Part shown: piece by piece, positions 6,930 to 51,406 of the stretch
Layout: each line of letters starts with the position of its first letter
How positions within the stretch are numbered: position 1 is the first letter of the stretch
Assembly (NCBI GenBank): GCA_036564195.1
Contig: DATCLA010000234.1
Coordinates: forward strand, 1 to 51,802
Reading direction: 5' to 3'
DNA from: Bacillota bacterium
Lineage (GTDB): Bacteria > Bacillota > UBA4882 > UBA8346
DNA: 51,802 bases
Translations under genes and position numbers: made by a program
The notes under the pieces: generated by a model
The model's database searches: none
Told to the model about the DNA's origin: nothing
What the model saw: the letters and a program-made list of their open reading frames with translations, nothing else

Positions 6930-6959
6930 GACTGCCAGGTTTGCAATATTCTGGCAGTC
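6930..6959 (+). terminator. Orphan stem-loop (9-bp perfect stem) in a gene-less stretch
   Basis: GACTGCCAG (6930-6938), a 12-nt loop, then CTGGCAGTC (6951-6959), followed by TACTTTTGT. No intact ORF ends just upstream. Confidence 0.4.
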
Positions 6960-7256: not shown

Positions 7257-7313
7257 GGCGTATCTTCATATATCACTGGTGAAGTAATAAATGTGGGAGG
7301 TGGAATGGTTTGA
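7257..7313 (+). pseudogene. C-terminal remnant of a short-chain dehydrogenase/reductase (SDR, FabG-like) gene
   Basis: Translation of 7257-7310 gives GVSSYITGEVINVGGGMV followed by a stop. This matches the near-universal classical SDR C-terminus (..ASYITGxxxxVxGGM..). An in-frame TAG at 7254 and further stops upstream show the rest of the gene is gone. Confidence 0.45.
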
Positions 7314-7541
7314 TAAACCGGTTGTATTTCTCGAAGCAATAACCGTTTAAAACTCCCGGAACTAAAGAAACTTTTATATGCATTCCGGAAATTAAATCGC
7401 GCCTAAAATGGTAAAATAGAAGATGTCTTTTTGTAAAAATCTTGGTTAACAAATTGGCTAAAAAACTTTAACAGCAGGAATTGTTGGTAAAAAAGCGAAT
7501 ACTCTACAGAATTTTATACCGATGTGGAAAGGATTTGTTAA

Positions 7542-10500
7542 ATGCCGAAACGTACAGATATTAATAAAGTAATGATTATTGGTTCCGGACCGATTATTAT
7601 CGGTCAGGCCTGTGAGTTTGACTATTCGGGAACTCAGGCCTGTAAAGCCCTGCGTAAGCTGGGATACCAGATCGTCTTGGTAAACTCAAACCCGGCTACC
7701 ATTATGACTGATCCCGGTATGGCTGATGTTACTTATATCGAACCCCTGAATGTGAAACGGTTGACCGAGATTATTGCCCAGGAGCGGCCCGATGCGTTAC
7801 TGCCGAATCTGGGCGGCCAGTCAGCCCTGAACCTCTGCGCCGAGCTTAACCAGGCCGGAGTCCTGAAACAATATGGGGTCAAAGTGATCGGAGTGGAACT
7901 TGATGCAATTGAACGCGGTGAAGACCGGATTGCTTTCAAGGAAACCATGAACCGGCTGGGTATACCGATACCCAAAAGCCAACCGGCGTACAGCGTTGAG
8001 GAAGCGGAACGGATCGCCGCGGAACTGGGCTATCCGGTAGTGATCCGGCCCGCTTATACCATGGGCGGCACCGGCGGTGGACTGGTATACAATGTCGAAG
8101 AGTTACGCCTGGTGGCCAGCAGAGGGATTGCTGCCAGTATGGTAGGCCAGATTTTAGTGGAAGAAGCGGTAATCGGCTGGGAAGAACTTGAGCTCGAAGT
8201 GGTACGGGACGCCAAAAATCAGATGATTACCGTCTGTTTTATTGAAAACGTGGACCCTATGGGCGTTCATACCGGAGATTCGTTCTGTGTGGCACCGATG
8301 TTAACCATCAGCCGGGAAGTACAACAGCGGCTGCAACAATACGCCTATGCGATCGTCGAAGCGATCCAGGTGATTGGTGGGACTAATGTCCAGTTTGCCC
8401 ATGACCCGGTCAGCGACAGGATTGTGGTGATTGAGATTAACCCTCGGACTTCCCGCTCCTCGGCCTTGGCCTCCAAGGCAACGGGCTTCCCAATCGCGAT
8501 GGTCTCGGCACTGCTGGCAGCCGGCTTAACCCTGGATGAAATCCCTTATTGGCGGGAGGGGACCCTGGATAAATATACGCCCTGCGGTGATTATGTAGTA
8601 GTCAAATTTGCCCGTTGGGCCTTTGAAAAGTTTAAAGGTGCCATCGATAAATTGGGTACTCAGATGCGGGCGGTCGGCGAGGTCATGAGTATCGGCAAAA
8701 ATTATAAAGAAGCGTTGCAAAAGGCAATCCGCTCCCTGGAGACCGGCCGTTACGGATTGGGATTTGTTAAAGACTTTCACCGGCGCTCTTTGGCGGAATT
8801 AATTGAGTTACTACGGGATCCTTCCAGTGAACGGCATTTTATTATGTACGAAGCCCTGCGTCAGGGTGCCACGGTTGAAGAGTTGCACCGGATTACCCAT
8901 GTTAAGCAGTGGTTTATTGAGCAAATGCAGGAATTGGTCCAGCTGGAGGGGGAGATCTTAAAATATAAAGGGAGTAGCCTGCCGGATGAGTTATTCCGCC
9001 GGGCCAAAGAGGACGGCTTTTCCGACCGTTATCTGGCCCAACTTTTGGATCTGCCCGAGTCGGAACTGCGCAGTCGGCGTACTGCTTTAGGAATTACCAA
9101 GCGGTGGGAGGCGATTCCGGTTAGCGGAGTTACCGATGCAGCCTATTATTATTCAACTTATCAGAGTAATAATACCCCGGACCATAGCATTACCCCCAGT
9201 AAACGGCGAAAAGTGATGATCCTAGGTGGCGGGCCCAACCGGATCGGCCAGGGAATCGAATTTGACTATTGTTGTGTGCATGCCGCCTTTGCCCTGCGGG
9301 AACTCGGGTTGGAGACAATTATGGTAAATTGTAACCCGGAGACGGTCTCTACTGACTATGACACCTCCGACAAACTATACTTTGAGCCACTGACGGTGGA
9401 GGAGGTGTTGAGCATTTATGAGAGAGAAAATCCGGAAGGGGTAATCGTCCAATTCGGAGGGCAGACACCTTTAAATATCGCGGCGGAACTGGCCCGGGAG
9501 GGAGTGCGGATCCTGGGAACCTCGCCGGAAACCATTGATCTGGCTGAAGACAGAGACCGCTTCCGGATCATGATGGACAAGTTGGGGATTCCCATGCCGG
9601 AGTCGGGAATGGCGGTCAATGTGGACCAAGCCCTGGAGGTGGCGGCACGAATCGGTTATCCGGTGATGGTGCGTCCTTCGTATGTATTGGGTGGACGGGG
9701 AATGGAGGTAGTTTATGACGCGGATAAATTGCGTGAATATATGGCGGCGGCGGTCAATGTAACACCGGAGCGGCCCATTTTAATCGATAAGTTCCTGGAA
9801 AACGCCATTGAGGCCGAAGCCGACGCCCTTGCCGACGTCACCGGGGCGTACGTCCCGGCGGTAATGGAACATATTGAACTGGCCGGAATTCACTCCGGAG
9901 ATTCGGCTTGTGTGATCCCGCCGATTACTATTCCGGAACGGCATTTAGCCACCATCGAAGCATATACCCGTACCATCGCTCGGGAGTTAAAGGTGGTCGG
10001 CTTGATAAATGTCCAATATGCCATTGCTAACGACCGGGTTTATGTGCTTGAGGCTAATCCCCGGGCGTCCCGGACTGTCCCGCTGGTCTCCAAAATTGCC
10101 AATGTTTCCATGGCCTGGGTTGCTACTGAATTGATGCTGGGCGGGTTGACAGTGCGGGATGCCGGCTTTGAACGGCGGAAGATTCCTTATTATGGCGTCA
10201 AAGAGGCGGTTTTCCCCTTTAATATGTTGCCGGAGGTGGACCCGGTCTTAGGTCCGGAGATGCGTTCCACTGGCGAGGTGTTGGGTCTGGCGGACTCCTT
10301 TGGCCTGGCTTTCTTTAAAGCCGAGGAAGCGACCCAGGTCCCGCTGCCGGTTTCCGGGGCGGCGCTGATCAGTGTCGCTGAAAAAGGCCCGGCGGTCTTG
10401 GAAATTGCCAGGGAATTGGCGGAACTGGGTTTTACGCTTAAAGCCACTCGGGGGACCCATCAGTTCCTAACCGAGTCTGGAATCAGTGCGGAACTGGTGC

Positions 10501-10763
10501 TCAAATTGAATGAAGGCCGCCCCAATCTGATTGACGAAATGATGAATAACCAGGTTCAACTGGTGATTAATACTCCTATCGGTAAACGCGGCCAGACGGA
10601 TGACTCCTACATTCGTAAGACCGCCATTAAATATAAGATTCCCTATATCACCACTTTGGCGGCGGCATTGGCCAGTGCCCGAGGGATTGCCGCTTACCGG
10701 GCGTCCTTAAGCGGTGCGGTTACGGTTAAACCGCTGCAAGCTTATCATGGGGACCTCCGCTAA
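7542..10763 (+). CDS. carB: Carbamoyl-phosphate synthase large subunit
   Basis: 1073 aa. The N-terminus is canonical ([58 protein letters not shown]). The ATP-grasp half is duplicated (second copy [31 protein letters not shown]...). The C-terminus is an MGS-like allosteric domain. No carA is adjacent. Confidence 0.97.
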   Translation: [1073 protein letters not shown]

Positions 10764-10795
10764 ACCTGGTGGCAAATTGCGAAATTTGAATGTCT

Positions 10796-10828
10796 AAACC
10801 TGCTGAAATTGCAGGTTTTTTCTTTTGT
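10796..10828. terminator. Rho-independent terminator between convergent carB and ubiE
   Basis: AAACCTGC (10796-10803), loop TGAAATT, then GCAGGTTT (10811-10818), followed by TTTCTTTTG. It has an A-rich left flank and a T-rich right flank, so it could act in both directions. Confidence 0.75.
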
Positions 10829-10836
10829 CAGACTGT

Positions 10837-11547
10837 TTAGGTTACAGTTCCCAGGTGAACCACAGCAATTCCCCAACTTAACGAGTGACATTCCACTTTG
10901 GCCAAGCCTAGTTGGTGGAAGTGGTCGGTTATTTGGGATGCCTCGCCAAAGTTGAGGATTGACTGACAAAGATAGCGGTAGGCTCTTTCATTCTGTGCGA
11001 CCCACCGACCCAAGCTGGTAATACCGTAAGTTAAATACCAGCGGTATAATTGCTTGACCAGCGGTAACCCGGGAGTAACCAACTCCAGGGAGACGATCCG
11101 GCCGCCCGGTTTAACCACCCGTTGCATTTCTCTTAATACTTGCAACGGCGCGGCAACATTACGAAGCCCATAACTGATAATTGCGCCATCGAAGGTAGCG
11201 GCGGCAAAAGGCAGCTTTTGGGCGTCACCTTGAAGGAAACAGACCCTGCCGGAATTAGCGGGAAGCTTTCGGGATTTGGCTACTGTTAACATTCGGGCTG
11301 AGAGGTCCAGACCGATTACTTTACCGTCGGGGCCGACTTTTTTGGCCAGCGACCGGGTGATCCTACCGGTGCCGCAACAGACGTCCAAGAAGTGGGATCC
11401 CGGTTGGACTCCGATCCGGTTAACCGCAAACTTTTGCCAGTAATGGTGGATTCCAAGACTCATAATTGTGTTTAGGCGGTCATATTGGTCGGCAATGGCA
11501 TCAAAGAGGGTCCGGATGGTCTCCGGGTCTTTGGTCAGTTGCGTCAT
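10837..11547 (-). CDS. ubiE: Demethylmenaquinone / ubiquinone-family C-methyltransferase (UbiE/MenG, class I SAM-dependent)
   Basis: UbiE-type N-terminus (FDAIADQYDRLNTIMSLGIHHYWQKFA), SAM motif I (LDVCCGTGRIT), and SYGLRNV plus VKPGGRIVSLE motifs. I prefer the ATG at 11547 (GGGGGAA RBS about 7 nt upstream) to the track's TTG at 11586. Confidence 0.88.
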   Translation of the reverse strand: MTQLTKDPETIRTLFDAIADQYDRLNTIMSLGIHHYWQKFAVNRIGVQPGSHFLDVCCGTGRITRSLAKKVGPDGKVIGLDLSARMLTVAKSRKLPANSGRVCFLQGDAQKLPFAAATFDGAIISYGLRNVAAPLQVLREMQRVVKPGGRIVSLELVTPGLPLVKQLYRWYLTYGITSLGRWVAQNERAYRYLCQSILNFGEASQITDHFHQLGLAKVECHSLSWGIAVVHLGTVT

Positions 11548-13555: not shown

Positions 13556-15178
13556 TTATTCCGGATTTTCTATTCCCCGGGGTGGCGCCGGCAGAAAGCG
13601 GATCCCGGGATTTTTTTCGGCTACATTTCGAAAAACCCATTCACTGCGAAATAACGCTACCGGGAGGCCGGATTTATCCTCCAGTAGTAGATCACCCTGG
13701 AGATTGATTTTAGACCGGGCAGTAATTCCCGGACCCTGGAGCCAGCGGGCCATGACGAAGGGAAGGTGCTGTAGTTCAATTTCCACTCCGTACTCACTGC
13801 GCAGCCGGTATTCAAAGACTTCGAATTGGAGGGCGCCGACTACTCCGATGATGAAAGATTCAAAGCCGCTGTCCGGCTGTTTGAAGAGTTGGACCGTGCC
13901 TTCCTGGGTAAGCTGGGTAACGCCTTTGATGAACTGCTTCCGTTTCATGGTGTCTTTCGGCTGAACCCGGGCAAATTGTTCCGGAGGAAAGACCGGAAAG
14001 GGTTCGAAACGAAATTTCCGGTGTTCGCTGCAGAGGGTGTCGCCAATCCCAAAAATGCCCGGATCAAACAGGCCAATAATGTCTCCGGGAAAAGCCTCCG
14101 TGACCACCGTTCGTTCCTGGGCCATAAATTGTTGCGGCTGAGCCAGTTTCACCGGTTTACCGGACTGCATATGAAAGACGCTCATCCCGCGGGTAAATTT
14201 GCCGGAACAGACCCGGGCAAAGGCCAGCCGGTCCCGGTGGGCCGGATTCATATTGGCCTGAATCTTAAAGATAAAGGCAGAAAATTCCTCATTGTCCGGT
14301 TCCAGCAATCCCTCGGAGGTAAAATGGGGTCCGGGTGCGGGTGCCAGCCGTAAAAATTCCGTTAAAAAGGGCTCTACACCAAAATTAGTCATCGCGCTGC
14401 CGAAAAACACCGGAGTCAGCTGGCCGGTTTGAATTTTTTGGTTATCAAACGCTTCTCCGGCAGTATTTAAAAGGTCAATATCGTTACAAAGCGCTTCGTA
14501 AATCTCTGGGCCTAAGATTGAGGCAAAGGCTGGATCGTTCACACTGCCGGTAGTCGTAGGTAATACCCATTGACCGTGGGCGCCGGAGGTTTCCAACAGT
14601 TCGATCTGGGCAAGCCGGCGGTTATAGACTCCTTGGTAATCACCGTTAATACCAATGGGCCAATTCATCGGATAGGAACTGATCCCTAAAACTTTTTCAA
14701 GCTCATCCATTAGCTCAAAAGGGTTTTTACCGTGACGGTCCATTTTATTGATGAAAGTGAAAACAGGAATGCCCCGTTGTTTACAAACCTTGAAGAGTTT
14801 GATAGTCTGGGCTTCAACGCCTTTGGCGACGTCAATTAACATTACCGCGCTGTCGGCAGCCATTAAAGTGCGGTAAGTGTCTTCACTGAAGTCCTGGTGA
14901 CCTGGAGTATCGAGAATATTGATTTGGTATCCTTGATATTCAAACTGTAACACGCTGGAGGTAACCGAGATGCCGCGTTGCTTTTCAATCTCCATCCAGT
15001 CGGAAACCGCATGCTTTTGCGCTTTGCGGGCTTTGACCGAACCGGCAAGGTGAATGGCACCTCCGTATAGCAGCAGTTTTTCGGTTAATGTGGTTTTTCC
15101 AGCGTCCGGGTGGGCGATGATTGCAAAGGTCCGGCGCCGATTAATCTCCGCTTGAAGTTGCTCTTTAAGTTGGAGCAA
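13556..15178 (-). CDS. prfC: Peptide chain release factor 3 (translational GTPase)
   Basis: RRRTFAIIAHPDAGKTTLTEKLLLYGGAI (G1), ILDTPGHQDFSEDT (G3), NKMD (G4), with RF3-like sequence throughout. The start is set at the TTG at 15178, 9 nt after GGAGGG. The track's upstream extension to 15241 adds a hydrophobic leader that RF3 does not have. Confidence 0.93.
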   Translation of the reverse strand: MLQLKEQLQAEINRRRTFAIIAHPDAGKTTLTEKLLLYGGAIHLAGSVKARKAQKHAVSDWMEIEKQRGISVTSSVLQFEYQGYQINILDTPGHQDFSEDTYRTLMAADSAVMLIDVAKGVEAQTIKLFKVCKQRGIPVFTFINKMDRHGKNPFELMDELEKVLGISSYPMNWPIGINGDYQGVYNRRLAQIELLETSGAHGQWVLPTTTGSVNDPAFASILGPEIYEALCNDIDLLNTAGEAFDNQKIQTGQLTPVFFGSAMTNFGVEPFLTEFLRLAPAPGPHFTSEGLLEPDNEEFSAFIFKIQANMNPAHRDRLAFARVCSGKFTRGMSVFHMQSGKPVKLAQPQQFMAQERTVVTEAFPGDIIGLFDPGIFGIGDTLCSEHRKFRFEPFPVFPPEQFARVQPKDTMKRKQFIKGVTQLTQEGTVQLFKQPDSGFESFIIGVVGALQFEVFEYRLRSEYGVEIELQHLPFVMARWLQGPGITARSKINLQGDLLLEDKSGLPVALFRSEWVFRNVAEKNPGIRFLPAPPRGIENPE

Positions 15179-15952
15179 TGTCAGAAACCCTCCATCTAAA
15201 AGTAGAATCAGAGTCAACAACCTAAAACTCCATTTCACCATTATAGCTTAGAAAAAGCAGTGTTACAAGATGAGAGCCGGTTAATTTCGGATTAACCAGA
15301 TGCTTCAGATTTAAAGGCCAGGCAGGGCCCACATCGCTAACTTCCGAAAATTTGACAGGGAAATTTTGGGATCAAAGAAGGATATTTCCAATTGCTGTCA
15401 AATTACTTTACAAAGTCATTTATAAGTAGATTAAAACATAAAGAAAATAAAATAAATTAAAAACAGGGCATAAGGCGCAGTAATTAAAACATATGGTAAA
15501 TATAATTCGAGTATACCAGCCATACATAGATAGTTCAAACGAATGGTTTTGTAGAATAGATAAACAGCTTAAGCCGTTAATAAATTACGTTTTTAGATGT
15601 TATACATGAGGGTTAAAGCTGAAGACTAAGTTTTTTCAACAGCTACAGCAAGAATCCGCCCACCATAGTAGTGCAGCCGCAATGGTACTGGTAAAACCAA
15701 AACCGGAGCAGCAGGAGATTGTATTGAGCGAAAGTTTGGATATAATGACGAATTAATTTATCATCTGTTTTCTTTACAAAAGCCCAGTCAAGTTTGGAAT
15801 GACCGGGTTTTTCTGTTAATTCGGTTTTGCGCTTGAAACTAAAATAGAGATAAACATCATTAAAGGGAAATATGGGGAAAGGAGGTGGGAGCGCCAACAG
15901 CGATTGTGCCTAAGCAGGCAGAGCTTAGATTGGGGGAAAGGAGGTTTTAAAT

Positions 15953-22415: not shown

Positions 22416-23759
22416 ATGGTTGGACGTAAACAAATACTCTGTTGCGGATTGCTGATTGTAATGTTAACGGTAGGCGTCTCATTGGGCTGGCGGAGTTTGG
22501 AAATAAACCGGAGACCACCCAAGCCCCATCCCTTTGGTTACCGGGCTTTAAAAATAAATGGTAAATATGTTGAAGCGACAGTCTTTCAACAGGAGCAGAG
22601 GCGGTTTTATGACCGTTGGAAACGTAATGGACCGATGTTGCGCCTTTCCGACGAAGCCCGTAATGATTTGCTTTTAGAAACAGTGATTAACCGGGCGGTC
22701 ATGGAAGACTATCTCCGGCAACAGCCGGGGGCGGAGATCAACCTCCAAGTGGTGCGGCGCTATATTGACCGCTATGTCAAAACCCATTACCCTACTGAAG
22801 AAGCTTGGCAGGCTTATCTGAAGAGTGTTTATTGCACGGATGAGGCTCAGTTGGAACAGGTCGTCGCAGTCTACCTGTTACAGTTGAAATATTTTCCGGC
22901 AGTAGCTAAGAAGTACGGCATTACTGTTTCACCGTCCGAGTTAGCCCAACGTGACCGCAGCCAACGGGAGGAAAACCGCAAGGCGGTGATCCGTCATATT
23001 TTGATTGCTCCCCATGACCGTACGCCCCGCCAGGCAGAGCAACTGGCCCGTAAGGTTTATCAGAAACTAAGTACAGGATTGGATTTTCAAGCAGCGGTTA
23101 AAAGCTACTCCGACGACCACCAGACTAAAGACCAAGGGGGACGCTTGGGTCCGTTAACCCGAAACCAGGTGCCGCCGGAGTTGGTCTGGAAAATCTTTAA
23201 CGCCCAACCCGGGCAGTTGTTCCCCCCGGTTAATACCAAATACGGCTGGGAGATTGTAAAAGTGGACCGTTTTATCGAGTCGGGACATCCCCTGTCCGAG
23301 CTGCGGGCGATGATCACAGTTGCCAAGTTTATGGCTTCAAAGGAGTACGAAACCTGGTTACAAGAGCTTAAAGCCGTTGCCAGGATCGAAATCACTGAAC
23401 CCTGTTTTCAGGCTTACCGACTCTCAAAAGCCCAAAAACACCATCAGGCCGGTCAAATTTATGAACGCCTTTACCATCAGTATCAAGCGGAGTTTTACTT
23501 ACAACGAGCGCTGGAAAGTTACCTGGCGGCTCAAAACTGGAAGAAATTAATTGAACTGGGCCAATTAGGTATAAAAAAACATGATAATCAAGTACCGTAT
23601 TATTTGTATGCCGCCGAAGGATTTTACCGCAATCGTCGTCGGCAGGAGGCTTTAAAACTACTAAAAAAAGCAGACAAACTGGCAGCTGGTAATCTAGTTC
23701 TGAAAAATATGACCATCCAAGCCTATCAGAAGCTGGGCTTAGAAAGCGGCTTAAAATAA
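22416..23759 (+). CDS. Membrane-anchored parvulin-type peptidyl-prolyl cis-trans isomerase (PrsA/SurA-like) with helical-repeat C-terminus
   Basis: N-terminal TM anchor (ILCCGLLIVMLTVGVSLGW). Parvulin domain: VIRHILIAP..FQAAVKSYSDDHQTKDQGGRLGPLTRNQVPPELVWKIFNAQPGQLFPPVNTKYGWEIVKVD. The C-terminal ~110 aa look like TPR-type helical repeats. Confidence 0.8.
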   Translation: MVGRKQILCCGLLIVMLTVGVSLGWRSLEINRRPPKPHPFGYRALKINGKYVEATVFQQEQRRFYDRWKRNGPMLRLSDEARNDLLLETVINRAVMEDYLRQQPGAEINLQVVRRYIDRYVKTHYPTEEAWQAYLKSVYCTDEAQLEQVVAVYLLQLKYFPAVAKKYGITVSPSELAQRDRSQREENRKAVIRHILIAPHDRTPRQAEQLARKVYQKLSTGLDFQAAVKSYSDDHQTKDQGGRLGPLTRNQVPPELVWKIFNAQPGQLFPPVNTKYGWEIVKVDRFIESGHPLSELRAMITVAKFMASKEYETWLQELKAVARIEITEPCFQAYRLSKAQKHHQAGQIYERLYHQYQAEFYLQRALESYLAAQNWKKLIELGQLGIKKHDNQVPYYLYAAEGFYRNRRRQEALKLLKKADKLAAGNLVLKNMTIQAYQKLGLESGLK

Positions 23760-28268: not shown

Positions 28269-28308
28269 ATCTCTCCTCTCCCTGTTGTTTTCTACGGAGA
28301 GGGGAGAT
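28269..28308 (+). terminator. Intergenic 13-bp stem-loop with a CU-rich 5' arm and a GA-rich 3' arm
   Basis: ATCTCTCCTCTCC (28269-28281) pairs with GGAGAGGGGAGAT (28296-28308), with one G-U pair and a 14-nt loop. It is built the same way as the hairpin at 26379-26408. Confidence 0.55.
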
Positions 28309-28356
28309 TTCAAAATGAAAATATTTTATTTATTGGAAAGGAAGGTGAATCCTCAG

Positions 28357-30624
28357 ATGAAACGTTCTCATACCCTGTTAGTGCTGGCGATGATTTGTGC
28401 AGTACTGATCCTGCTTTTTTCTCACGCCAATGCCGCCAATCATAACTATAGCGAAGCCCTGAAGTTAGCCACTGCCTGGTTTGATGCGAATCGTTGCGGG
28501 ACTAGTGTAGCCACGGATAATGTGTTTTCCAGCTGGCGCGGTCCCTGTCATACCTCCGATTCGGTCGACGGCGGATTTCATGATGCCGGGGACCATGTAA
28601 AGTTCGGCTTGCCGGCGGCCTTTTCCGCTTCGGCGATGGGGTGGGCTTTATATGAATTCAAGTCTGAATTTGACCAGGCCGGAGCTACCGCCAAAGCATT
28701 GCAGGAATTGAAAATTTTTAGCGATTATTTTTTGAAATGCTGGAAAAATAATTCTTTCGTGGTTCAGATCGGTGACGGTGGCAGCGACCACAGCTACTGG
28801 GGACCGCCGGAGACTCAAACTACCAGCCGACCGACTTATACCGCCACCAGCAGTACGCCTGCTTCTGATATCTGCGGGCAGACTGCCGGAGCACTCGCCT
28901 TAATGTATTTAAATTATAAGAGTGAAAATGCAAGCTATGCCCAGCAGTGTCTGACAACGGCGAAAGCCTTATTTAACTTTGCTAAGACCAATTTAGGCCG
29001 AAGTTCAGTCGCTCAAGGCTTTTATACCTCCAGTTCCCACTATGACGACTTGGCTTGGGCGGCCATCTGGCTTTCCGTTGCCACCGGCGACCAAAGCTAT
29101 CTGGATTCCGCCGCCACCTGGGTGGAGAAGAAGAACGACCAGGGCGATGACCCCTATAAAAAACCCTGGACTTATTGTTGGGATGATTCGACTTTAGCCA
29201 ATCTGATTATGATGTACAAGCTGACCGGAGAAGAGAAATATTACAACGGCATCATTTGGAATTTTGACTGGTACAGTAAGACTCTGAACAAAACTCCTTT
29301 TGGTTTACCCTATTTGGACAGTTGGGGTGTGTTGCGTTATGCTTCCGCCGAGGCCGGTTTGATGTATATCATGTACAAAAACTTTGGGGTCGACAATTAC
29401 ATTAAAATTGCCAATTTAATGATGGATTACTGTTTGGGCAGCAACCCGAAGAATTTGTGTTATCTTACGAATTATGGGTCAAATTCCGTTAAACACCCGC
29501 ACCATCGGGCTAATGAACCCAACCGGGACGGAAAAACTTACGGGATGACCGGAGCTTTGGCCGGCGGTCCGGACAACAGCGATAATTTTACTGATGATGT
29601 CAACCAGTATGTCTATACCGAGGTGGCGCTGGACTACAATGCCTCATTTTTACTGGGTTGCGCCGGACGTTCCTATGTGGCGCGGGGTGGACCTCCCGGT
29701 ACGCCGTTTCCGACTCCGACCCCGGCGGAAACTTGCCCTCCCGGCAATGGTACCGGGCTGGCGGGTGCTTATTATAACGGAGTCAGCCTGTCAGGGACAC
29801 CGGTGTTGACCCGGGTTGATCCCACTATCGATTTTAACTGGGGAGGAGGTTCGCCCGCTACCGGACTGCCCAGTGACGGTTTTTCAGTCCGTTGGACCGG
29901 CGAGGTGGAAGCCCGTTCCACCGAGACCTACACTTTCTATCTTAGTCATGATGACGGAGCCCGGCTTTGGGTCAATAATGTCCAGGTCATCAATAACTGG
30001 ACCGACCATGCCGCGGTCGAAGACAGCGGTACCATTCAGCTGGAGATTGGGAAGAAATATCCGATCGTGGTGGAGTTTTATGAAAATTCCGGAGATGCCT
30101 CTTGTCAATTGTCCTGGAGCACCAGGACCATCGCCAAAGAAATAATTCCCCGAACCCAACTTTATAATTCGGAGTCACCGGCTTCGCCGACACCGACATT
30201 ATCACCAACCTTAACTCCGCCACCGACAGTAACTCCAAGCGGAACACCGACGTCAAGCCCACCGCCGCCAGTCACTCCGACTCCAACCCCAACGGTGACT
30301 GGAGGGAGCAGCTGTACAGTGTCTTATACCATGAATGACTGGGGCAGTGGAGCAACGGTCAATATTACGATAAAGAATAATGGCACTGCCGCAATTGACG
30401 GTTGGAAACTTGTCTTTGAATTCCCGGGTAATCAGAAGATTACCAACCTCTGGTGCGCCCAGTATTCGCAAAGCGGTGCAACGGTGACCGTTACCAATGA
30501 GGGCTGGAACAGCCTTATTCCGCAGGGGGGTTCAGTGAACTTTGGGTTTAACATCACCTATAGCGGTACTAATGCCAAACCGACCAGATTTACTCTGAAT
30601 GGTATAGTCTGCCAGGTTCTGTAA
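28357..30624 (+). CDS. Secreted GH9 endoglucanase with PA14 domain and C-terminal CBM2
   Basis: The GH9 module is very similar to the 26499 gene, with the same motifs. Next comes a PA14 domain (about 29750-30165): GLAGAYYNGVSLSGTPVLTRVDPTIDFNWG..FSVRWTGEVEARSTETYTFYLSHDDGARLWVNNVQVINNW..YPIVVEFYENSGDASCQLSWS. A PT linker leads to CBM2 (30313-30621). The start at the ATG at 28357 aligns with the paralogue's MKR.. start. The track's 28285 and the ATG at 28315 are alternatives. Confidence 0.9.
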   Translation: MKRSHTLLVLAMICAVLILLFSHANAANHNYSEALKLATAWFDANRCGTSVATDNVFSSWRGPCHTSDSVDGGFHDAGDHVKFGLPAAFSASAMGWALYEFKSEFDQAGATAKALQELKIFSDYFLKCWKNNSFVVQIGDGGSDHSYWGPPETQTTSRPTYTATSSTPASDICGQTAGALALMYLNYKSENASYAQQCLTTAKALFNFAKTNLGRSSVAQGFYTSSSHYDDLAWAAIWLSVATGDQSYLDSAATWVEKKNDQGDDPYKKPWTYCWDDSTLANLIMMYKLTGEEKYYNGIIWNFDWYSKTLNKTPFGLPYLDSWGVLRYASAEAGLMYIMYKNFGVDNYIKIANLMMDYCLGSNPKNLCYLTNYGSNSVKHPHHRANEPNRDGKTYGMTGALAGGPDNSDNFTDDVNQYVYTEVALDYNASFLLGCAGRSYVARGGPPGTPFPTPTPAETCPPGNGTGLAGAYYNGVSLSGTPVLTRVDPTIDFNWGGGSPATGLPSDGFSVRWTGEVEARSTETYTFYLSHDDGARLWVNNVQVINNWTDHAAVEDSGTIQLEIGKKYPIVVEFYENSGDASCQLSWSTRTIAKEIIPRTQLYNSESPASPTPTLSPTLTPPPTVTPSGTPTSSPPPPVTPTPTPTVTGGSSCTVSYTMNDWGSGATVNITIKNNGTAAIDGWKLVFEFPGNQKITNLWCAQYSQSGATVTVTNEGWNSLIPQGGSVNFGFNITYSGTNAKPTRFTLNGIVCQVL
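30313..30621 (+). repeat. CBM2 cassette copy 6
   Basis: [52 protein letters not shown]. Three Cys. Confidence 0.9.
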
Positions 30625-33726: not shown

Positions 33727-35991
33727 TTGAATAGAACCAGAAGCCTGGGATTGATGATTCTTATTACTGTTTATATGGTCTGCCTGTTAATTGGTTTTCC
33801 GATTTCTGCCGCCACCTATCCCTATCAAGACCCCAACCTTAGCATTGAGGAGCGGGTTACTGATTTACTCGCCCGGATGACTCTGGCAGAGAAAGCCGGG
33901 CAGATGATCCAGACTGAGCGACACCTGGCTTCCCCGGAGGATGTTAAAACCTACTGTTTAGGCTCGATTTTCAACGGGGGAGGAAATGTCCCCAGCCCGA
34001 ATACACCAACCGGCTGGTGCGAGATGATCGATGCCTATCAAAAGGCTGCTCTGGAAACCCGGCTGCAAATCCCATTTCTTTATGGTACCGATGCGGTGCA
34101 CGGTCATAACAACGTGAAAGATGCCACCATCTTTCCGCATAACATTGGGTTGGGTGCCACCCGGGATCCGGATCTGGTAGAGCGGATCGGTCAAATTGTA
34201 GCCAGGGAAGTGAGGGCGACCGGGGTCCATTGGACCTTTGCGCCTTGTGTCGCTGTACCGCAAAATGAAAAATGGGGCCGTACCTATGAGGGTTTTAGTG
34301 AGGAAACCGCTTTAGTCAGTGAACTGGGCGCGGCGTTTGTCAAAGGGGTCCAAGGTGCCGATTACCATGTCGACCTTAGTCGTAATGATAAAATCGCCGC
34401 CTGCCTTAAACATTATCTCGCCGACGGAGCTACCGAAGGTGGGATTGATGCAGGCAATGCTCTGGTAAACGATGCAGTTTTGCGGTTGAAACACCTGCCG
34501 CCGTATCTGGCCGGAATCGCCGCCGGGGCTCGGACTGTAATGGTTTCGTTTAACCAGATTAACGGTGTAGAGTGCCACGCCAACGGCCAGTTGATTACGG
34601 ACGTCTTAAAAAAGGAGCTTAAGTTTGACGGGATTGTAGTCAGCGATTATAACGGAATTGACGATAATGACCCTTCAAACTACCGCAACGCAGTCAAACT
34701 GGCAGTTAATGCCGGAATTGACATGATTATGACTACGGTCCGCTGGAAGGAATGCCTGGCGGCGATCATCGACCTGACAGAACAGGGTGAGATCGATCCG
34801 GCGCGGATTGATGATGCAGTCCGCCGGATTTTAAGGGTAAAGTTTCAATTGGGTTTGTTTGAAAAACCCTACACCGACCGGTCGTTAATGGCCAGTTTCG
34901 GATCGGAGCAGCATCGGAGGGTAGCCCGGGAGGCTGTCCGTAAATCATTGGTGCTTTTAAAAAATGACCGGAACCTACTTCCTTTAGCCAAGAGCGGCCT
35001 GCGGATTTTAGTCGCCGGGAAATGCGCTGATAATATCGGGTACCAATGCGGCGGTTGGACCATTACTTGGCAAGGGCTGAGTGGCCAGATTACCGCCGGA
35101 ACCAGTATTTTGCAGGGGATTAAAAACGTAGCTCCGGGTAACACCATCACCTACCGGCAAGATGGCAGCGGCGCCGTCGGCCACGACGTGGCGATAGTTG
35201 TAATCGGAGAAACTCCGTATGCTGAGTCCAATGGGGATCATCAGACTTTAGCCTTGGACTACAACGATCTTCAGACATTGCGCAATGTAAAAGATTCGGG
35301 AGTTCCTACCATAGTAGTGTTGATTTCGGGCCGGCCGTTAATGATCAGTGATTACCTGAAAGATTGGGCAGCCCTGGTTGCAGCCTGGCTTCCCGGCAGT
35401 GAAGGCCAGGGTGTGGCGGAAGTGCTCTTCGGCGACTATAACTTCAGCGGTAAATTACCGTTTGTCTGGCCCCAGTCAGTAACCCAGATCCCGATTGACC
35501 CTGGTGACGGAGAAGTGCCGCTCTTTCCCTTGGGAACCGGACTTAGCTATCTCGTTACTCCCACTGCCACGGTTGCAGAATCACCCTCACCTTCTCCGAC
35601 GTCAACGGTTCCGGTGACGCCAATCCCGACTCCGATCGTAACGGTAATCCCCTCTCCAACTCAGGCCGGAGGAAGCCATTTTACAGTGGCCTATACCATG
35701 AATGACTGGGGCAGCGGCGCTACTGTTAATGTAACGGTTAAGAATAATGGCACCGTGACAATTGACGGTTGGGAGCTGGTCTTTAGCTTTCCGGGTAATC
35801 AAAAGATCACCAATCTGTGGTGTGCTCAATACACGCAAAGCGGCGCAACGGTTACTGTAACCAATGAGACCTGGAATAGCACAATCCTGCCGGGTGGTAC
35901 GGTCAGCTTTGGCTTCAACCTTAATTACAGCGGGAGTAATGTCAAACCCACTGCTTTCACATTAAATGGTGCGGCCTGTCAAATTCTATAA
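33727..35991 (+). CDS. Secreted GH3 beta-glucosidase / glucan exo-1,4-beta-glucosidase with C-terminal CBM2
   Basis: TTG start 9-10 nt after GGAGG, then a signal peptide. GH3 N-terminus: YPYQDPNLSIEERVTDLLARMTLAEKAGQMIQ. It carries the GTDAVHGHNN motif and the nucleophile region GIVVSDYNGI. The C-terminal alpha/beta sandwich contains VVIGETPYAESNGD. A PT linker leads to CBM2 (35680-35988). Confidence 0.92.
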   Translation: MNRTRSLGLMILITVYMVCLLIGFPISAATYPYQDPNLSIEERVTDLLARMTLAEKAGQMIQTERHLASPEDVKTYCLGSIFNGGGNVPSPNTPTGWCEMIDAYQKAALETRLQIPFLYGTDAVHGHNNVKDATIFPHNIGLGATRDPDLVERIGQIVAREVRATGVHWTFAPCVAVPQNEKWGRTYEGFSEETALVSELGAAFVKGVQGADYHVDLSRNDKIAACLKHYLADGATEGGIDAGNALVNDAVLRLKHLPPYLAGIAAGARTVMVSFNQINGVECHANGQLITDVLKKELKFDGIVVSDYNGIDDNDPSNYRNAVKLAVNAGIDMIMTTVRWKECLAAIIDLTEQGEIDPARIDDAVRRILRVKFQLGLFEKPYTDRSLMASFGSEQHRRVAREAVRKSLVLLKNDRNLLPLAKSGLRILVAGKCADNIGYQCGGWTITWQGLSGQITAGTSILQGIKNVAPGNTITYRQDGSGAVGHDVAIVVIGETPYAESNGDHQTLALDYNDLQTLRNVKDSGVPTIVVLISGRPLMISDYLKDWAALVAAWLPGSEGQGVAEVLFGDYNFSGKLPFVWPQSVTQIPIDPGDGEVPLFPLGTGLSYLVTPTATVAESPSPSPTSTVPVTPIPTPIVTVIPSPTQAGGSHFTVAYTMNDWGSGATVNVTVKNNGTVTIDGWELVFSFPGNQKITNLWCAQYTQSGATVTVTNETWNSTILPGGTVSFGFNLNYSGSNVKPTAFTLNGAACQIL
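35680..35988 (+). repeat. CBM2 cassette copy 8 (first Cys replaced by Phe)
   Basis: [60 protein letters not shown]. Confidence 0.9.
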
Positions 35992-47142: not shown

Positions 47143-47337
47143 CCTCTTTTTGCGGGGTTAAACCCGCACTGACTTCATGACTGGCTGTTTGACAGAAACA
47201 TTTTTGGGATAGGTATCAGTTAAGCGCGGGGTGAAGGATATCAAGGCAATAACAGTCTGCTTTTGCCTCGCACTTTCTTCATATTAACTCACTGCCGACA
47301 GTTGGTATAAATCTGAAACAGAAGGAGATGATTTCAA

Positions 47338-50109
47338 ATGAAGCAAAATAATGAATTTTCAGCTAAGATCTGCCCTAAAACTGGTAAAGTGATTAAAATA
47401 AGCCGTTCTGACCAGGCCCGGCGGAGCTGGTGGTTTCCCATTGCCGGACTGATTGGGTTTATTTGGTTTGCAATCCGGGTAATTCCCAAACCAAGCCGGG
47501 CAACTTATCCGTGTCAAAGAGCGGCTTTTCCGTTAGCGGCTTCATTTATTCTTTGGTTAACCGGTTTATGCGGCGGAGCGCTGGCTTTCCGCCGACTGAA
47601 GCAGTACTTCTTAAAGTCATCTCGCCTAGTAGGGGCTCTCAGTATGCTGGCCTTGACTGCCATCACCTGCTTTACCCTTCATTTTTTGCCTGGTAAAGCC
47701 GACGCTGCACCGGTTCGTCTGGCAACCTCTACGGTAGCGATTGTCCAGTCCTCCCAAGCCAACGCCAGTAATATTCAATATGATGAGATTAGGTCGATGG
47801 TTCGAAAGGCAGTTGATTTAGCCGGGGGACTGTCCGGTATAGTCAAAAACGGTGATGTGGTAGTCATCAAGCCTAACCTGGTATCATACAACAGTAACGG
47901 CCGGATTCTAGCAGCAGAGGTCAACGGGAACACTACCGATTGGCGGGTTACCAAAGCAGTAGTGGAACTGGTCCGTGAGCTCAATCCCAGCGGTAAAATT
48001 TATATAATGGAAGGTTCATCAGTCCCGACCCAGGAAGCATTTAACATTCTAAAATATACCTCGGCTAATATCCCCGAAGCGGATCTGATTGTTCCGATCG
48101 AGACGGATAGCGGCGCTTGGCAGGATACTAACTCGACCGGACTAGTTAAGGTTAGTTTACCTGATGGCCTGCTCCATAAGGAATACTATCTGAACCGCAA
48201 GATTAAAGAGGCCGATGTGCTCATTAGCCTGTCATGCCTGAAGACCCATTGGAGTGCCGGTTTTACCGGAAGCTGTAAAAACATTGGGATTGGGGCAACC
48301 CCGGGTAACATTTACGGTATCTCTTCCGGTAATCCGCACCGTAATAATATGGTTACTCATGATAATACTGCCGGTGACCTTCATAAGTGGATCCGTGACT
48401 ACTATAAGTGCCGTCCGGCTGATTTTACCATCATAGATGGCCTGCAGGGATTGCAAAACGGGCCGATCAGTGCTAACAGTTCCGACCAGATGAATATGCG
48501 GTTGATCCTGGCCGGTAAAGATGCAGTAGCGGTAGATACCATCTGTGGGCTGGTCATGAACTGGGATCCGGAAAGCATTGATTATTTGAAATATTTAAAC
48601 AGTGACTCCCTTGGCAATTTAGACACAGCCTGCATTAATGTGGTAGGCAAAAAAGTTGATGAAGTGCGTAAAAGTTTTGCCGGTCGAACACCGGTGGCCG
48701 GAGGTTCCAAAATTACCGATACAGCTCCGCCAAGCTTGACGGTTAATTCGGTTTCACTCCAAGGTAGCATGTTGAATATCTCTTTGGCAACCAGTGCCGA
48801 CACTGTTAAAGTAGAGATCTATCTGGATGGTGTCTTGCAATTGCCGGTATCGGTCTCCAACTTTAGTAATATCACCATTAATACCAACGGGCTTGCCCCC
48901 GGGAGCCATACCGTGAGTGTTAACGCCTACGACCGTTTCTTGAACCGTGCCGAAAAGACGGTCACTGTTAACAGCCAGGGCAGTACTACTCCAGGCAATT
49001 CTCCCAGTCCTACTCCGCTAGTCCCCGGTAACTACAACGCTCCCCGGGCTGTTCAAGCTCCGGTCATTGACGGGCTGGGTAATGATAGTTGCTGGGCTGA
49101 GGCGTCCTGGAGCAGTATTAGTTTTGTCTGGCTGGGGAGCAGCCCGTCACCATCGGATTTCAGCGGCCGTTACAAGATAGTCTGGACCCCCGAGCGGCTC
49201 TACTATTTAGTTGAAATTACCGATGATGTTTTCTCAGCGCCCTATACCAATCCGTTGATTAATTATTATAACAATGACTGTGTGGAGTTGTTTATCGATG
49301 AAGATTGTTCCGGGGGCGAACATACTAACAACCATAACGCCTTTGCCTATCATATTCAACGTAATGGCGCTGTGACGGACAACTCAACCTCCGGAAACCC
49401 CAAGACCTTTAACGACCATGTTGAAGTACAAGTAACCCAAAATGGCAATGTCTATACCTGGGAAATTGCTGTAAAGGTCTTTCCGGATACTTATAATGAA
49501 AACAACAGCAACAATCAACCGGTTAATTTAACCGCCGGAAAAGTCCTCGGATTTGGAGTTGCCTACAATGACAACGACGGCGGCAGTACCCGGGAGAATT
49601 TTATCGGCTCAATGGAGATCTCCGGTACTGATAAAAACGTCGCTTATAAAAATGCCAGTGTCTTTGGGAAACTGCAATTAATCGATAACAGTACCGTGCC
49701 TTCTCCGTCAGCAACATCATCAGTAACAGCGTCGCCGCCGGAACCAACGGCGCTTACTCCCAGTCCAACTTCATCAGTTCCGCCAACCAATGGCTGTACG
49801 GTAACATATACAATCCAAAATGACTGGGGCAGCGGGGCCACGGTGAACGTTACGCTAAAAAATAACCAAACAACAGCGATTACTGGTTGGACTTTGGTCT
49901 GGAACTTTGGGGGTAACCAGAAAATTACCAACCTGTGGAACGGTACGTTTAACCAAAGCGGGACGGAGGTTACAGTAAAAAATGCCGCTTATAATGGGAC
50001 GATCGCTCCTAACGGCATGGTAACTTTCGGATTTAACCTGACGTACAGCGGGACCAATAGCAAACCGGCGAGTTTTAGGTTGAACGGTGCTGTTTGTCAG
50101 GTTCTATAA
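47338..50109 (+). CDS. Multi-domain protein: N-terminal TM segments, DUF362 domain, Ig-like domain, CBM9-like domain, CBM2
   Basis: 923 aa with three N-terminal hydrophobic segments. The last ends in a signal-peptidase-like site (GKADA-AP).
- DUF362-type core: [62 protein letters not shown].
- Ig-like module: [33 protein letters not shown].
- CBM9-like module: [61 protein letters not shown]. This tracks the Thermotoga Xyn10A CBM9 pattern as I recall it.
- A linker, then CBM2 (49795-50106). Confidence 0.8.
49795..50106 (+). repeat. CBM2 cassette copy 13 (variant subtype: NLWNGTF, AAYNG)
   Basis: [73 protein letters not shown]. Only the two canonical Cys are present. It has one extra residue before NDW. 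Confidence 0.9.
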
Positions 50110-50166: not shown

Positions 50167-50235
50167 AAAACTGTGAAAAAGACGGCATCCGGATTGTTTT
50201 GTCGGAACGGATTTCTTTTTCACAGTTTTTGTTGC
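50167..50235 (+). terminator. Strong terminator closing the glycoside-hydrolase array
   Basis: AAAACTGTGAAAAAGA (50167-50182) pairs perfectly with TCTTTTTCACAGTTTT (50214-50229). That is a 16-bp stem around a 31-nt loop, followed by TGTTGC, with Ts already inside the 3' arm. Confidence 0.75.
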
Positions 50236-50273: not shown

Positions 50274-50301
50274 TTGACAGACCATTAAATTATGATAAAA
50301 T
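50274..50301 (+). promoter_or_regulatory. Sigma-A-type promoter for the perR-rbr operon
   Basis: -35 TTGACA (50274-50279), a 16-nt spacer, then an extended -10 TGATAAAAT (-10 hexamer TAAAAT at 50296-50301). It lies about 70 nt upstream of the GTG start. Confidence 0.6.
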
Positions 50302-50370: not shown

Positions 50371-50793
50371 GTGGACAGTCGGAACGCAAACTATGGAGCC
50401 AGCCTGATCAAGAAGGGGATTAAACCTTCGTATTCCCGGCTTAAAATATTGGAATATCTGATTAATCATCCGGTCCATCCCACTGCGGATCAAATCTATC
50501 AACACCTGATCGGAGAACTGCCGACTTTATCAAAGACTACAATCTATAATACTTTAAAACTCTTAGTCGATGCCGGGCTGGCGATGGTAGTGACTATTGA
50601 TGATACAGAAACCCGCTATGACGGCAATCCTACTCCTCATGGCCATTTTAAATGCAACGGATGTAGAGAGATCTATGATTTTAAGTTTGATGCCGACCAT
50701 TTAGTGATTGAGGATTTGGAAGGGTTTGTAATCAATACTAAAGATGTTTATTTTAGAGGTACTTGTCCAAAGTGCTTTAAAAATAAAGATTAA
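50371..50793 (+). CDS. perR: Fur-family transcriptional regulator, PerR-like
   Basis: 140 aa, GTG start. Winged-helix region: RLKILEYLINHPVHPTADQIYQHL..LSKTTIYNTLKLLVDAGL. Metal-site residues: HGHFKC. Structural Zn Cys pairs: CNGC ... CPKC. It is directly followed by rubrerythrin. Confidence 0.85.
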   Translation: MDSRNANYGASLIKKGIKPSYSRLKILEYLINHPVHPTADQIYQHLIGELPTLSKTTIYNTLKLLVDAGLAMVVTIDDTETRYDGNPTPHGHFKCNGCREIYDFKFDADHLVIEDLEGFVINTKDVYFRGTCPKCFKNKD

Positions 50794-50812
50794 AAATTAG
50801 GAGGTAGTATTG

Positions 50813-51406
50813 ATGAAAAGTTTAAAAGGTACTAAAACTGCGGAAAATCTGTTGAAGGCTTTTGCCGGGGAATCCCAGGCGCGTAACAGGTACACCTATT
50901 ATGCTTCGGTGGCAGATAAGGAAGGTTTCAAGCAGATCAAAAATATCTTCATTGAAACCGCAGACAATGAGAAGGAACACGCTAAACGGTTTTATAAGTT
51001 TTTGCTTGCCGGACTCGAGGGAGAACTGCCGGCCACGATTGAAATTACCGCCGGTTACCCGGTGGCTCAAGGTTCAACCCTTGACAACCTAAAAGCCGCT
51101 GCCAGCGGTGAAAAAGAAGAATGGTCCGACCTTTATCCGTCCTTTGCCAAAGTGGCCGATGCGGAAGGCTTTTCGGAGATTGCTACTGCCTTCCGGATGA
51201 TTGCCACCGCCGAACAACGGCACGAAATCCGCTATAATAAATTGGCTGCCAATGTAGCTAACGGTACAGTTTTCAAAAAAGACGGCAAGGTGTTTTGGAA
51301 ATGCGGCAACTGTGGCTATGTTCACGAAGGGCCGGAAGCGCCGGAAAAGTGTCCTGCCTGTCTCCATCCCCAAGCCTATTTTGAGGTGTTTGTCGAAAAC
51401 TATTAA
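50813..51406 (+). CDS. rbr: Rubrerythrin
   Basis: A four-helix-bundle diiron domain carries ExxH motifs (EKEHAKRF, AEQRHEIRY) and the N-terminal GTKTAENLLKAFAGESQARNRYTYY. The C-terminus is a rubredoxin-like knuckle (WKCGNCGY..CPAC). The ATG at 50813 follows AGGAGG. Confidence 0.95.
   Translation: MKSLKGTKTAENLLKAFAGESQARNRYTYYASVADKEGFKQIKNIFIETADNEKEHAKRFYKFLLAGLEGELPATIEITAGYPVAQGSTLDNLKAAASGEKEEWSDLYPSFAKVADAEGFSEIATAFRMIATAEQRHEIRYNKLAANVANGTVFKKDGKVFWKCGNCGYVHEGPEAPEKCPACLHPQAYFEVFVENY

Follow-up and report, generated by a model that had tools for sequence, protein, structure and literature searches.

A DUF362 protein with CBM9 and CBM2 modules at the end of a Bacillota cellulase array, a candidate accessory factor in anaerobic cell-wall breakdown

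Introduction

A cellulase array in a 51,802-nucleotide stretch of DNA from an uncultured Bacillota bacterium (NCBI GenBank assembly GCA_036564195.1, contig DATCLA010000234.1; the whole stretch is referred to below as the window) ends with an open reading frame (ORF) at 47338-50109, whose product is built, in this order, of a three-helix N-terminal membrane module, a DUF362 domain, an immunoglobulin (Ig)-like domain and two carbohydrate-binding modules (CBMs), of families CBM9 and CBM2. A new accessory function in the breakdown of plant cell walls is a credible but unproven proposal for this DUF362 protein, and the explanation that we favour, with a probability of about 0.4, makes it a secreted enzyme that depends on a metal or cofactor, works at the reducing ends of polysaccharides and is docked here on cellulose. 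The components of this explanation differ in strength: the protein is very probably an exported, substrate-targeted accessory protein of a conserved subfamily, and it is somewhat more probably than not an enzyme that relies on a factor delivered through the membrane, while the assignment of its core chemistry to reducing ends specifically is tentative. The most far-reaching version, a new class of secreted LarA-fold enzymes that modify the reducing-end sugar and receive their cofactor or metal through an ArsP-family permease or a Cys-bearing module, we consider rather unlikely when taken whole.

In the mechanism envisaged, the core would be an enzyme dependent on a metal or a small cofactor that is brought through the cytoplasmic membrane, either by an adjacent ArsP_1-type permease or, as here, by the fused three-helix Cys-bearing module, which would be removed or left behind on release of the mature protein; the delivered factor may be a thiophilic metal or cofactor. 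Its chemistry on the reducing-end sugar could be C1/C2 oxidation, isomerisation or epimerisation, by which aldonolactone or aldonate ends would be made or used, and CBM9 and CBM2 would dock it on cellulose beside GH48 and GH9 enzymes (GH, glycoside hydrolase). An enzyme is suggested because the core keeps an invariant set of polar residues, delivery across the membrane because a permease in trans alternates with a membrane module in cis, and a thiophilic factor because both membrane partners carry conserved Cys and the only characterised ArsP protein exports its substrate. Reducing-end chemistry is suggested because the partners of the core are CBM9 and two lactonase-type propeller families.

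Anaerobic cellulolysis is thought to be carried out by hydrolases only, since the oxidative helper enzymes of aerobes require O2. A DUF362 core tied to reducing-end- and cellulose-binding modules, dockerins and lactonases is a rare concrete candidate for a non-hydrolytic accessory factor in anaerobes and, if the proposal is true, such a reducing-end enzyme would be an anaerobic counterpart of the redox “auxiliary activities” of aerobes. The LarA-like fold described below bears on the role of DUF362 as a sister family in nickel-pincer biochemistry, and the occurrence of either a permease or a fused module points to a way, open to testing, in which a secreted cofactor enzyme could mature. Should the protein do no more than bind, it would be one further uncharacterised CBM-bearing protein, of a type noted in 2017.

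The gene and the parts of its product are as follows.

47338-50109, + strand: whole gene, 923 amino acid residues (aa), ATG start (ORF list and Pfam domains)
47338-47697, + strand: N-terminal module, aa 1-120, three hydrophobic helices (hydropathy, AlphaFold2)
47473-47529, + strand: nearly invariant core motif between helices 1 and 2, aa 46-64 (43-sequence alignment)
47698-48732, + strand: DUF362 domain, LarA-like two-lobed alpha/beta fold, aa 121-465 (Pfam, AlphaFold2, Foldseek)
48733-49005, + strand: Ig-like/Fn3-like beta-sandwich, aa 466-556 (AlphaFold2 strands, confident at 467-546; Foldseek)
49006-49065, + strand: linker 1, rich in Pro, Ser and Thr (sequence read)
49066-49683, + strand: CBM9, aa 577-782 (Pfam CBM9_1, PF06452, E 1.3e-38, 133 bits)
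49684-49794, + strand: linker 2, rich in Pro, Thr and Ser (sequence read)
49795-50106, + strand: CBM2, aa 820-923 (Pfam CBM_2, PF00553, aa 820-920, E 3.9e-30, 104.6 bits)

Fold and conserved residues of the DUF362 core

An earlier note on this DNA had recognised a DUF362 domain from short motifs, all of which are found in the protein (KPNLV at aa 178-182, a second motif at 301-319 and IIDG at 365-368), and profile searching bears the placement out, Pfam DUF362 (PF04015) matching aa 175-403 with E 2.4e-31 and 109.8 bits against a cut-off of 24 over profile positions 1-198 of 200. Its remark that DUF362 has no assigned function also holds, none having been found in the literature searched, where a paper on COG2006 concerns a cytoplasmic homologue, Csac_1294, and matches to a baculovirus “DUF362x” were discarded as irrelevant to DUF362, as was a match to a paper on TmAT that arose only from the start of the word DUF3623.

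No DUF362 structure has been solved. In an AlphaFold2 model of aa 121-560 (predicted local distance difference test score, pLDDT, 95; predicted template modelling score, pTM, 0.93), an alpha/beta core is followed by a beta-sandwich. Fold prediction and a structure search for related active sites, both proposed in the earlier note, lead to relatives of the LarA nickel-pincer racemase and to no other enzymes: LarA and LarAH proteins are the only enzyme-like Foldseek matches of the core (E 1.5e-8 to 1.3e-5), with 260-314 aligned columns and a template modelling (TM) score of about 0.35 for 8ezf, 5huq, 2yjg, 9q3j, 7s91, 6d6z and 9eia. The PDB descriptions of 9q3j and 9q3k are of LarA-like enzymes that have only one catalytic His. 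For aa 121-556, Pfam and NCBIfam gave no match to a GH or to another catalytic domain of carbohydrate-active enzymes (CAZymes), and the GH matches found by Foldseek arise through the Ig-like domain or have TM scores below 0.2; nor did Foldseek detect structural similarity to hydrolase, esterase or lyase folds.

At the sequence level, the N-terminal part, used as a single sequence, reaches only LarA among PDB sequences, and marginally (E 0.04-0.16). The Lar_N profile (PF09861) does not attain its cut-off (18.8 bits against 23.3, E 0.001, aa 282-320 only) and the NCBIfam models of the LarA family score 11-18 bits against cut-offs of 460-540, these weak matches covering the motif H..AGF(S/T)G..K. 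DUF362 and DUF2088/LarA are placed in one Pfam clan, CL0471, in the literature, which also gives the residues that define LarA: Arg75 (phosphate contact), His108 and His174 (catalytic), Lys184 (cofactor tether) and His200 (Ni ligand). Three of these positions can be mapped, through a marginal phmmer alignment to 5huq (E 0.04), and their columns were counted over an alignment of 65 relatives.

48277-48279, + strand: K314, aligned with LarA Lys184, which tethers the nickel-pincer nucleotide (NPN); Lys in 65/65 relatives
48019-48021, + strand: S228, aligned with LarA His108; Ala 44, Ser 11, Gly 8, Cys 2 and His 0/65
48247-48249, + strand: H304, aligned with LarA His174; His 43, Asn 14, Thr 4, Ser 4 (n=65)

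Comparing the family with LarA by hhalign, with a LarA sequence whose residues 86-190 were verified against the 5huq alignment, gave a probability of 16% and left Arg75 and His200 unplaced; the invariant H341 lies 27 residues past K314, against 16 in LarA, and the alignments end before His200.

These data bear on whether the protein is a true LarA-class enzyme, that is, an NPN-dependent racemase or epimerase that would use proton-coupled hydride transfer on chain ends that are 2-hydroxy (aldonic) acids. The shared fold and clan, the invariant Lys184 equivalent and the weak Lar_N and NCBIfam matches are what such an enzyme would display, 9q3j and 9q3k offer a precedent for a single catalytic His, and the lactonase partners described below would generate aldonates. 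Yet the His108 equivalent is His in none of the 65 relatives and the His174 equivalent in only 43, the Lar_N score is subthreshold, the Arg75 and His200 equivalents are unmapped, and no lar genes are seen in the annotated neighbourhoods of DUF362 genes; moreover, the protein is exported unfolded, by the Sec pathway or the type IX secretion system (T9SS), whereas NPN is made in the cytoplasm by LarB, LarE and LarC. We give this alternative a slim chance, and regard the core as a LarA-like scaffold unlikely to work as a LarA-type racemase because the catalytic His108 is absent.

Between aa 121 and 560 the family has 27 invariant positions. About half are polar, among them K178, N180, D201, R203, K302, K314, N315, H341, D354 and D367, and the window protein matches every invariant column of the 65-sequence alignment. 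Their number and polarity argue for a ligand site or active site rather than a spacer. A role with Fe-S clusters or ferredoxin, to which the Pfam note on DUF362 alludes, was rejected: Fe-S domains are absent from the subfamily, and C358, the one Cys that is frequent in the core, occurs in 54/65 relatives.

A widespread extracytoplasmic subfamily

The Ig-like domain is attached in all relatives of this DUF362 subfamily, and the DUF362+Ig core constitutes an extracytoplasmic subfamily present in Bacillota, Bacteroidota and other phyla, whose members begin with Sec or lipoprotein signals or with the N-terminal module shared with the window protein. By Foldseek, the Ig-like domain resembles the Fn3-like modules of CbhA and the B1 domain of CelAly, that is, Fn3/X-type modules of cellulases. 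The core has 408 relatives at 50-77% identity, and an exhaustive profile search yielded 321 representatives at E <= 1e-30. In the 150 that score best, for which single-sequence phmmer queries provide lower bounds, the N-terminal module occurs in at least 41, CBM9 in at least 8, and CBM2 and dockerin in at least 2 each. The 70 of these 150 that have unexplained extra sequence were scanned with Pfam and carry a T9SS tail (25/70), Big_7 (15/70), dockerin (at least 3/70) or CBM4_9 (1/70), other appendages being InlB-type or Listeria-Bacteroides repeats and Cu_amine_oxidN1. Most relatives have no CBM and have ordinary cleavable signals. The closest two, 76-77% identical to the window protein, also lie within arrays of CBM2-bearing GH genes, more distant ones adjoin GH10/GH43, CBM3/GH94 or GH30-dockerin genes, and one adjoins a T9SS amylase gene (GH13, starch-related).

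The architecture DUF362-Ig-CBM9-CBM2 recurs in P0235, and in P0067 with an orphan CBM2 ORF following; the fusion predates this species, because it is present in other organisms. Short orphan CBM2 ORFs also lie just 3' of the DUF362 genes of close relatives (L001 11815-12108, L002 7392-7685, L015 3632-3841), and probably represent DUF362-...-CBM2 genes split by frameshift, decay or assembly error.

The earlier note proposed a cellulose-directed accessory activity. Of this, several elements stand: the gene is real and belongs to the array without encoding a GH, its core matches the DUF362 profile, close relatives lie inside CAZyme arrays, and fusions of the types DUF362-CBM9-CBM2, DUF362-CBM9-dockerin and DUF362 with two CBM9 modules are found in several organisms. 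What does not stand is a core directed at cellulose as such, for the DUF362+Ig unit is not cellulose-specific, most relatives being free of CBMs, many having T9SS tails or surface repeats, and several lying in non-CAZyme contexts; the argument from a shared CBM2 cassette is also weak, as shown below.

CBM9 and lactonase partners

CBM9 is by far the commonest CBM partner of the subfamily. The CBM9 module of the window protein, which the earlier note expected at about aa 560-780, is matched by Pfam at aa 577-782 and, among PDB sequences, resembles 7nwn (E 1.7e-8) and 1i82, the CBM9-2 of Thermotoga maritima Xyn10A (E 2.2e-5). The characterised member of the family binds reducing ends. In CBM9-2 the clamp that holds the reducing-end disaccharide is formed by Trp71 and Trp175; by alignment, both aromatic clamp positions are Tyr in the window protein, so that their aromatic character is retained, and the acidic DxVExFIDE stretch is conserved in the alignments with 1i82 and 7nwn. 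A haem-binding, DOMON-type CBM9 was considered and rejected, the nearest relatives being sugar-binding xylanase CBM9s whose acidic and aromatic positions are kept.

Fused DUF362-CBM9 proteins were recovered as P0234, P0237, P0242, P0263 and P0271, and DUF362-CBM9-dockerin proteins at L008 (confirmed by Pfam) and L009. At two loci, an ORF with CBM9_1 only stands immediately upstream of the DUF362+Ig gene (L047 6204-7244, L033 3-491), the order at L047 being ArsP_1, CBM9, DUF362 with 3 nucleotides (nt) between the end of the CBM9 ORF and the DUF362 ORF; each such pair may consist of two genes, or of a single gene broken by a stop codon. As enzyme partners of the subfamily, only two lactonase-type propeller families can be recognised: SMP-30/gluconolactonase-like proteins (PF08450), fused in P0316 and encoded by convergent neighbours at L035 (9089-9763, - strand), L036 (2023-3480, - strand) and L037 (1789-3132, - strand), and the PF10282 lactonase, fused in P0249.

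The partners can be read in another way, as belonging to an enzyme whose chemistry has nothing to do with reducing ends (an esterase, a lyase or an enzyme of a non-carbohydrate polymer, for example) and which the appended modules merely target. Such a reading would accommodate the diversity of the appendages (T9SS, Big_7, InlB repeats, Cu_amine_oxidN1, CBM4_9, DUF5107) and the contexts that lack CAZymes or, in one case, relate to starch (GH13), but it leaves unexplained why CBM9 is the commonest CBM partner and also a separately encoded neighbour, why recognisable enzyme partners are limited to two lactonase-type families, and why Foldseek finds no similarity to hydrolase, esterase or lyase folds. 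We hold it to be unlikely, though deserving of serious consideration.

A permease in trans or a membrane module in cis

An ArsP_1 permease gene (PF03773) stands beside the DUF362+Ig gene, on the same strand, at 22 independent loci in at least two phyla (L004 5853-6770, L005 2911-3789, L010 8924-9838, L022 6983-7873, and L025, L027, L034-36, L038-39, L041-43, L045-47, L049-51, L058 and L066), and no report of this linkage was found in the literature searched. The permeases match PF03773 with E 1e-35 to 1e-45 and form a subfamily of their own, 44-51% identical across Bacillota and Bacteroidota, with the motifs SPLCTYGTVP and GVPLYACGGGTIP. The one ArsP protein whose function has been characterised works as an exporter (PMC7176098), and the Pfam-annotated DUF362/ArsP_1 neighbourhoods contain no arsenic-resistance genes. 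Eight loci encode DUF362-Ig-DUF5107 fusions, all with an ArsP_1 permease gene upstream (fusion loci and proteins L041-L046, L049-L051, P0334 and P0351); the only PDB match of DUF5107 is 5cd6, an unannotated structural-genomics entry, and nothing relevant to DUF5107 was found in the literature.

The window protein has, in place of a permease, its N-terminal module, with hydrophobic segments at about aa 31-49, 62-85 and 96-118 by hydropathy and AlphaFold2 helices at 32-48, 58-91 and 95-115 of moderate confidence (pLDDT 65-87), in agreement with the N-terminal transmembrane segments seen in the earlier note. No Pfam or NCBIfam model spans the module in scans of the window protein. When 43 sequences with the module (40 representatives, P0001, P0002 and the window protein) are aligned, the core motif contains a Y-P-C that is at least 90% conserved, its Cys being C59, and 112 homologous N-terminal fragments were found in Planctomycetota, Bacteroidota and Acidobacteriota, where, as in Bacillota, the module heads DUF362 proteins. 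At L011, a contig of a Bacteroidales metagenome-assembled genome (MAG), two tandem DUF362 paralogues (6605-8008 and 9641-11044) each have the N-terminal membrane module.

Permease and module tend to exclude one another. When the count is limited to loci that show 1.2 kb or more of upstream sequence, and the module is scored by a strict core criterion (linker and DUF362-start positions had given false matches to the hidden Markov model), a permease gene accompanies 0/7 loci with the fused module as against 19/28 without it (Fisher p = 0.0017), and in a rough neighbour-joining tree the two states are interleaved. Homology between the module and ArsP_1 is insignificant (E 0.05-0.2 in a three-sequence database). 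The module and a T9SS tail occur within single proteins in P0252, P0257 and P0262, an odd combination for a polytopic membrane anchor, and the mature protein would therefore have to be able to leave the inner membrane.

A non-catalytic, flytrap-like receptor, which would catch a small solute released in polysaccharide breakdown and hand it to the ArsP_1-type permease for uptake, would also account for a two-lobed alpha/beta fold, for the very frequent adjacency of a same-strand permease gene and for the loss of the catalytic His residues of LarA. It is at odds, though, with the forms that carry T9SS tails, dockerins or CBMs, whose site of action, beyond the outer membrane or on the substrate, keeps them away from a permease in the inner membrane, with the fused three-helix module, no obvious substitute for an importer, and with the export activity of the one ArsP member characterised. 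We judge the receptor unlikely, and prefer a core served by the permease or the module to one that feeds a permease.

The cellulase array, its host and the case for adhesion

The DUF362 gene is intact and, as the earlier note held, is the last, non-GH gene of a same-strand array, the ORF, Pfam and context data being in agreement.

15953-47142, + strand: upstream context, 13 GH genes (12 with C-terminal CBM2) and a gene for a PrsA-like peptidyl-prolyl isomerase (PPIase) (Pfam)
47322-47327, + strand: Shine-Dalgarno sequence AAGGAG, 10 nt before the ATG (sequence read)
50169-50235, + strand: intrinsic-terminator-like hairpin (50169-50228) and U-run, closing the array (dG -29.3 kcal/mol, z -2.3)

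Counting the DUF362 gene, the array has 14 genes, with the hydrolases spread over 31 kb upstream on the same strand: GH5 (three), GH9 (seven), GH48, GH3 and one BNR/Sortilin-repeat protein by Pfam. CBM2 is borne by the three GH5, six of the GH9, the GH48, the GH3 and the BNR/Sortilin-repeat protein, and the remaining GH9 has two CBM3 modules and no CBM2. Every other CBM2-bearing gene of the array thus carries a GH module, as had been claimed: 12/12 if the BNR/Sortilin-repeat protein is, as presumed, a GH74 enzyme. Seven metagenome contigs, which come from four or more samples, encode the identical 923-aa protein, with its neighbours unchanged throughout.

A terminator directly downstream, also reported in the earlier note, is present as the hairpin at 50169-50228, followed by TTTTTGTT; a simple pattern scan for terminators did not pick it up, and an Rfam scan of the window gave no match. 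Beyond it lie genes for a Fur-family regulator and rubrerythrin (50371-50793 and 50810-51406), an oxidative-stress pair typical of anaerobes, preceded by a near-consensus promoter at 50274-50301 (TTGACA, 16 nt, TAAAAT, with TG). Within the array, the PrsA-like PPIase (Rotamase domain, no CBM; 22416-23759) is encoded between a GH9 gene and the GH48 gene and could serve the exported enzymes as a foldase of their own, and two architectures are unusual (28285-30624 and 33727-35991), one a GH9 with PA14 inserted before CBM2 and the other a GH3 beta-glucosidase-type enzyme with a C-terminal CBM2.

The CBM2 of the DUF362 protein aligns with 3ndy, the CBM2 of Clostridium cellulovorans EngD, with E 3e-30, the W, W and Y of NDW, NLW and AAYNG falling on W, W and Y. 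The earlier note took it to belong to the same cassette as the CBM2s of the hydrolases. In this it was mistaken: the module is an outlier, 56-65% identical to those of the hydrolases, which among themselves average 72% (range 63.5-89%), and is not a recently shared cassette, because its identity to them is well below that mean.

The window also encodes an ShlB/POTRA outer-membrane protein, an OmpH/Skp chaperone and the release factor RF3, which is 80-87% identical to proteins of Bacillota MAGs and whose closest named relatives, at 70-74% identity, are Negativicutes (Sporomusa, Anaerosporomusa); these lineage-marker genes and the array occupy 4168-5829, 6145-6630, 13556-15241 and 15953-47142. 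Because of the ShlB/POTRA and OmpH/Skp genes and the Negativicutes-like RF3, the host most likely belongs to a diderm, anaerobic Bacillota lineage. A cellulolytic diderm lineage of Bacillota would be of note in itself, and its CBM2-bearing enzymes would have to pass the outer membrane. Directly upstream of the ShlB/POTRA transporter gene lies an ORF of 1347 aa (50-4093) with no Pfam match, whose product, judged by position, could be its two-partner-secretion cargo.

The nature of the envelope matters for the main alternative offered in the earlier note, a purely adhesive role in which the transmembrane segments anchor the protein in the cell membrane, CBM9 and CBM2 tether the cell to cellulose, and DUF362 and the Ig-like domain serve as a spacer. 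Three predicted hydrophobic helices, two CBMs on long linkers and a domain with no known catalytic activity would suit such a tether. In a diderm cell, as indicated by the ShlB/POTRA, OmpH/Skp and RF3 genes, an inner-membrane anchor would hold the CBMs in the periplasm, however, and adhesion is disfavoured because such an anchor cannot reach cellulose; furthermore, N-terminal modules of the identical type head proteins with T9SS secretion tails, most relatives have cleavable signals and no CBM, and 27 invariant positions with a conserved permease partner are not spacer-like. We would call a purely adhesive role a long shot.

Weighing the evidence

Several observations count against a secreted, cofactor-dependent enzyme of reducing ends. 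The fold relationship is not echoed by the family profile, which finds no LarA match among PDB sequences, and the LarA residue mapping depends on the marginal phmmer alignment given above. No Pfam-annotated neighbourhood contains larB-, larC- or larE-type genes, and a cofactor made in the cytoplasm, such as NPN, fits poorly with a protein exported by Sec or T9SS. That the N-terminal module is cleaved is deduced only from proteins that combine it with T9SS tails. The links to lactonases and to CBM9 concern a minority of family members, several relatives have no CAZyme neighbours, and the SGL and PF10282 propellers are functionally broad families. An anaerobe, finally, would require an extracellular electron acceptor for net oxidation.

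Comparison with known systems

The association of DUF362 with CBM9 has been reported before. Wong et al. (2017; PMC5742341), working with cellulose enrichments of beaver and moose gut origin, found DUF362 “consistently appended to CBM9”, including a DUF362-CBM9-DOC1 protein, and proposed no function, fold, mechanism or partner genes for it. The DUF362-CBM fusion to which the earlier note drew attention is thus real, but its DUF362-CBM9 part is not new. The window protein shares with these DUF362-CBM9-dockerin proteins and with S4XJL8 of Sorangium cellulosum a DUF362 core followed by CBM9 and a link to cellulolytic communities. It differs from the dockerin proteins in having CBM2 in the place of the dockerin, which suits a non-cellulosomal, free-enzyme system, in its three-helix N-terminal module, and in its position at the end of a GH48/GH9 array, in a probably diderm lineage of Bacillota.

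With LarA, the core has in common the two-lobed fold, the Pfam clan and the motif ADxLIS...H..AGF(S/T)G..K with the tethering Lys. Unlike LarA, it has no His at the His108 site, a variable His174 site and a Lar_N score below threshold; it is about 80 residues shorter (345 against 424 aa), is exported and is always followed by an Ig-like domain, and its subfamily is linked to a permease, with no larBCE genes in the Pfam-annotated neighbourhoods. The partner permeases match PF03773, the family of ArsP (TC 2.A.119), known for organoarsenical efflux, and differ from ArsP as a distinct subfamily found beside DUF362 genes.

By analogy, the protein may be likened to cellobiose dehydrogenase and other redox enzymes of aerobes, in which a non-hydrolytic domain is combined with binding modules and, as would be proposed here, lactones arise at reducing ends. 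CBM9 belongs to the DOMON-like fold group, which also holds the cytochrome domain of cellobiose dehydrogenase. The core is nonetheless unrelated in sequence and fold to the catalytic domain of that enzyme, shows no flavin or haem motif, and occurs in an anaerobic organism.

Compared with these systems, what is new here is the assignment of the LarA fold with a residue-level test, the conserved N-terminal module and its alternation with a permease, the links to lactonases and to separately encoded CBM9, and the setting of a DUF362 protein in a Negativicutes-related cellulase array.

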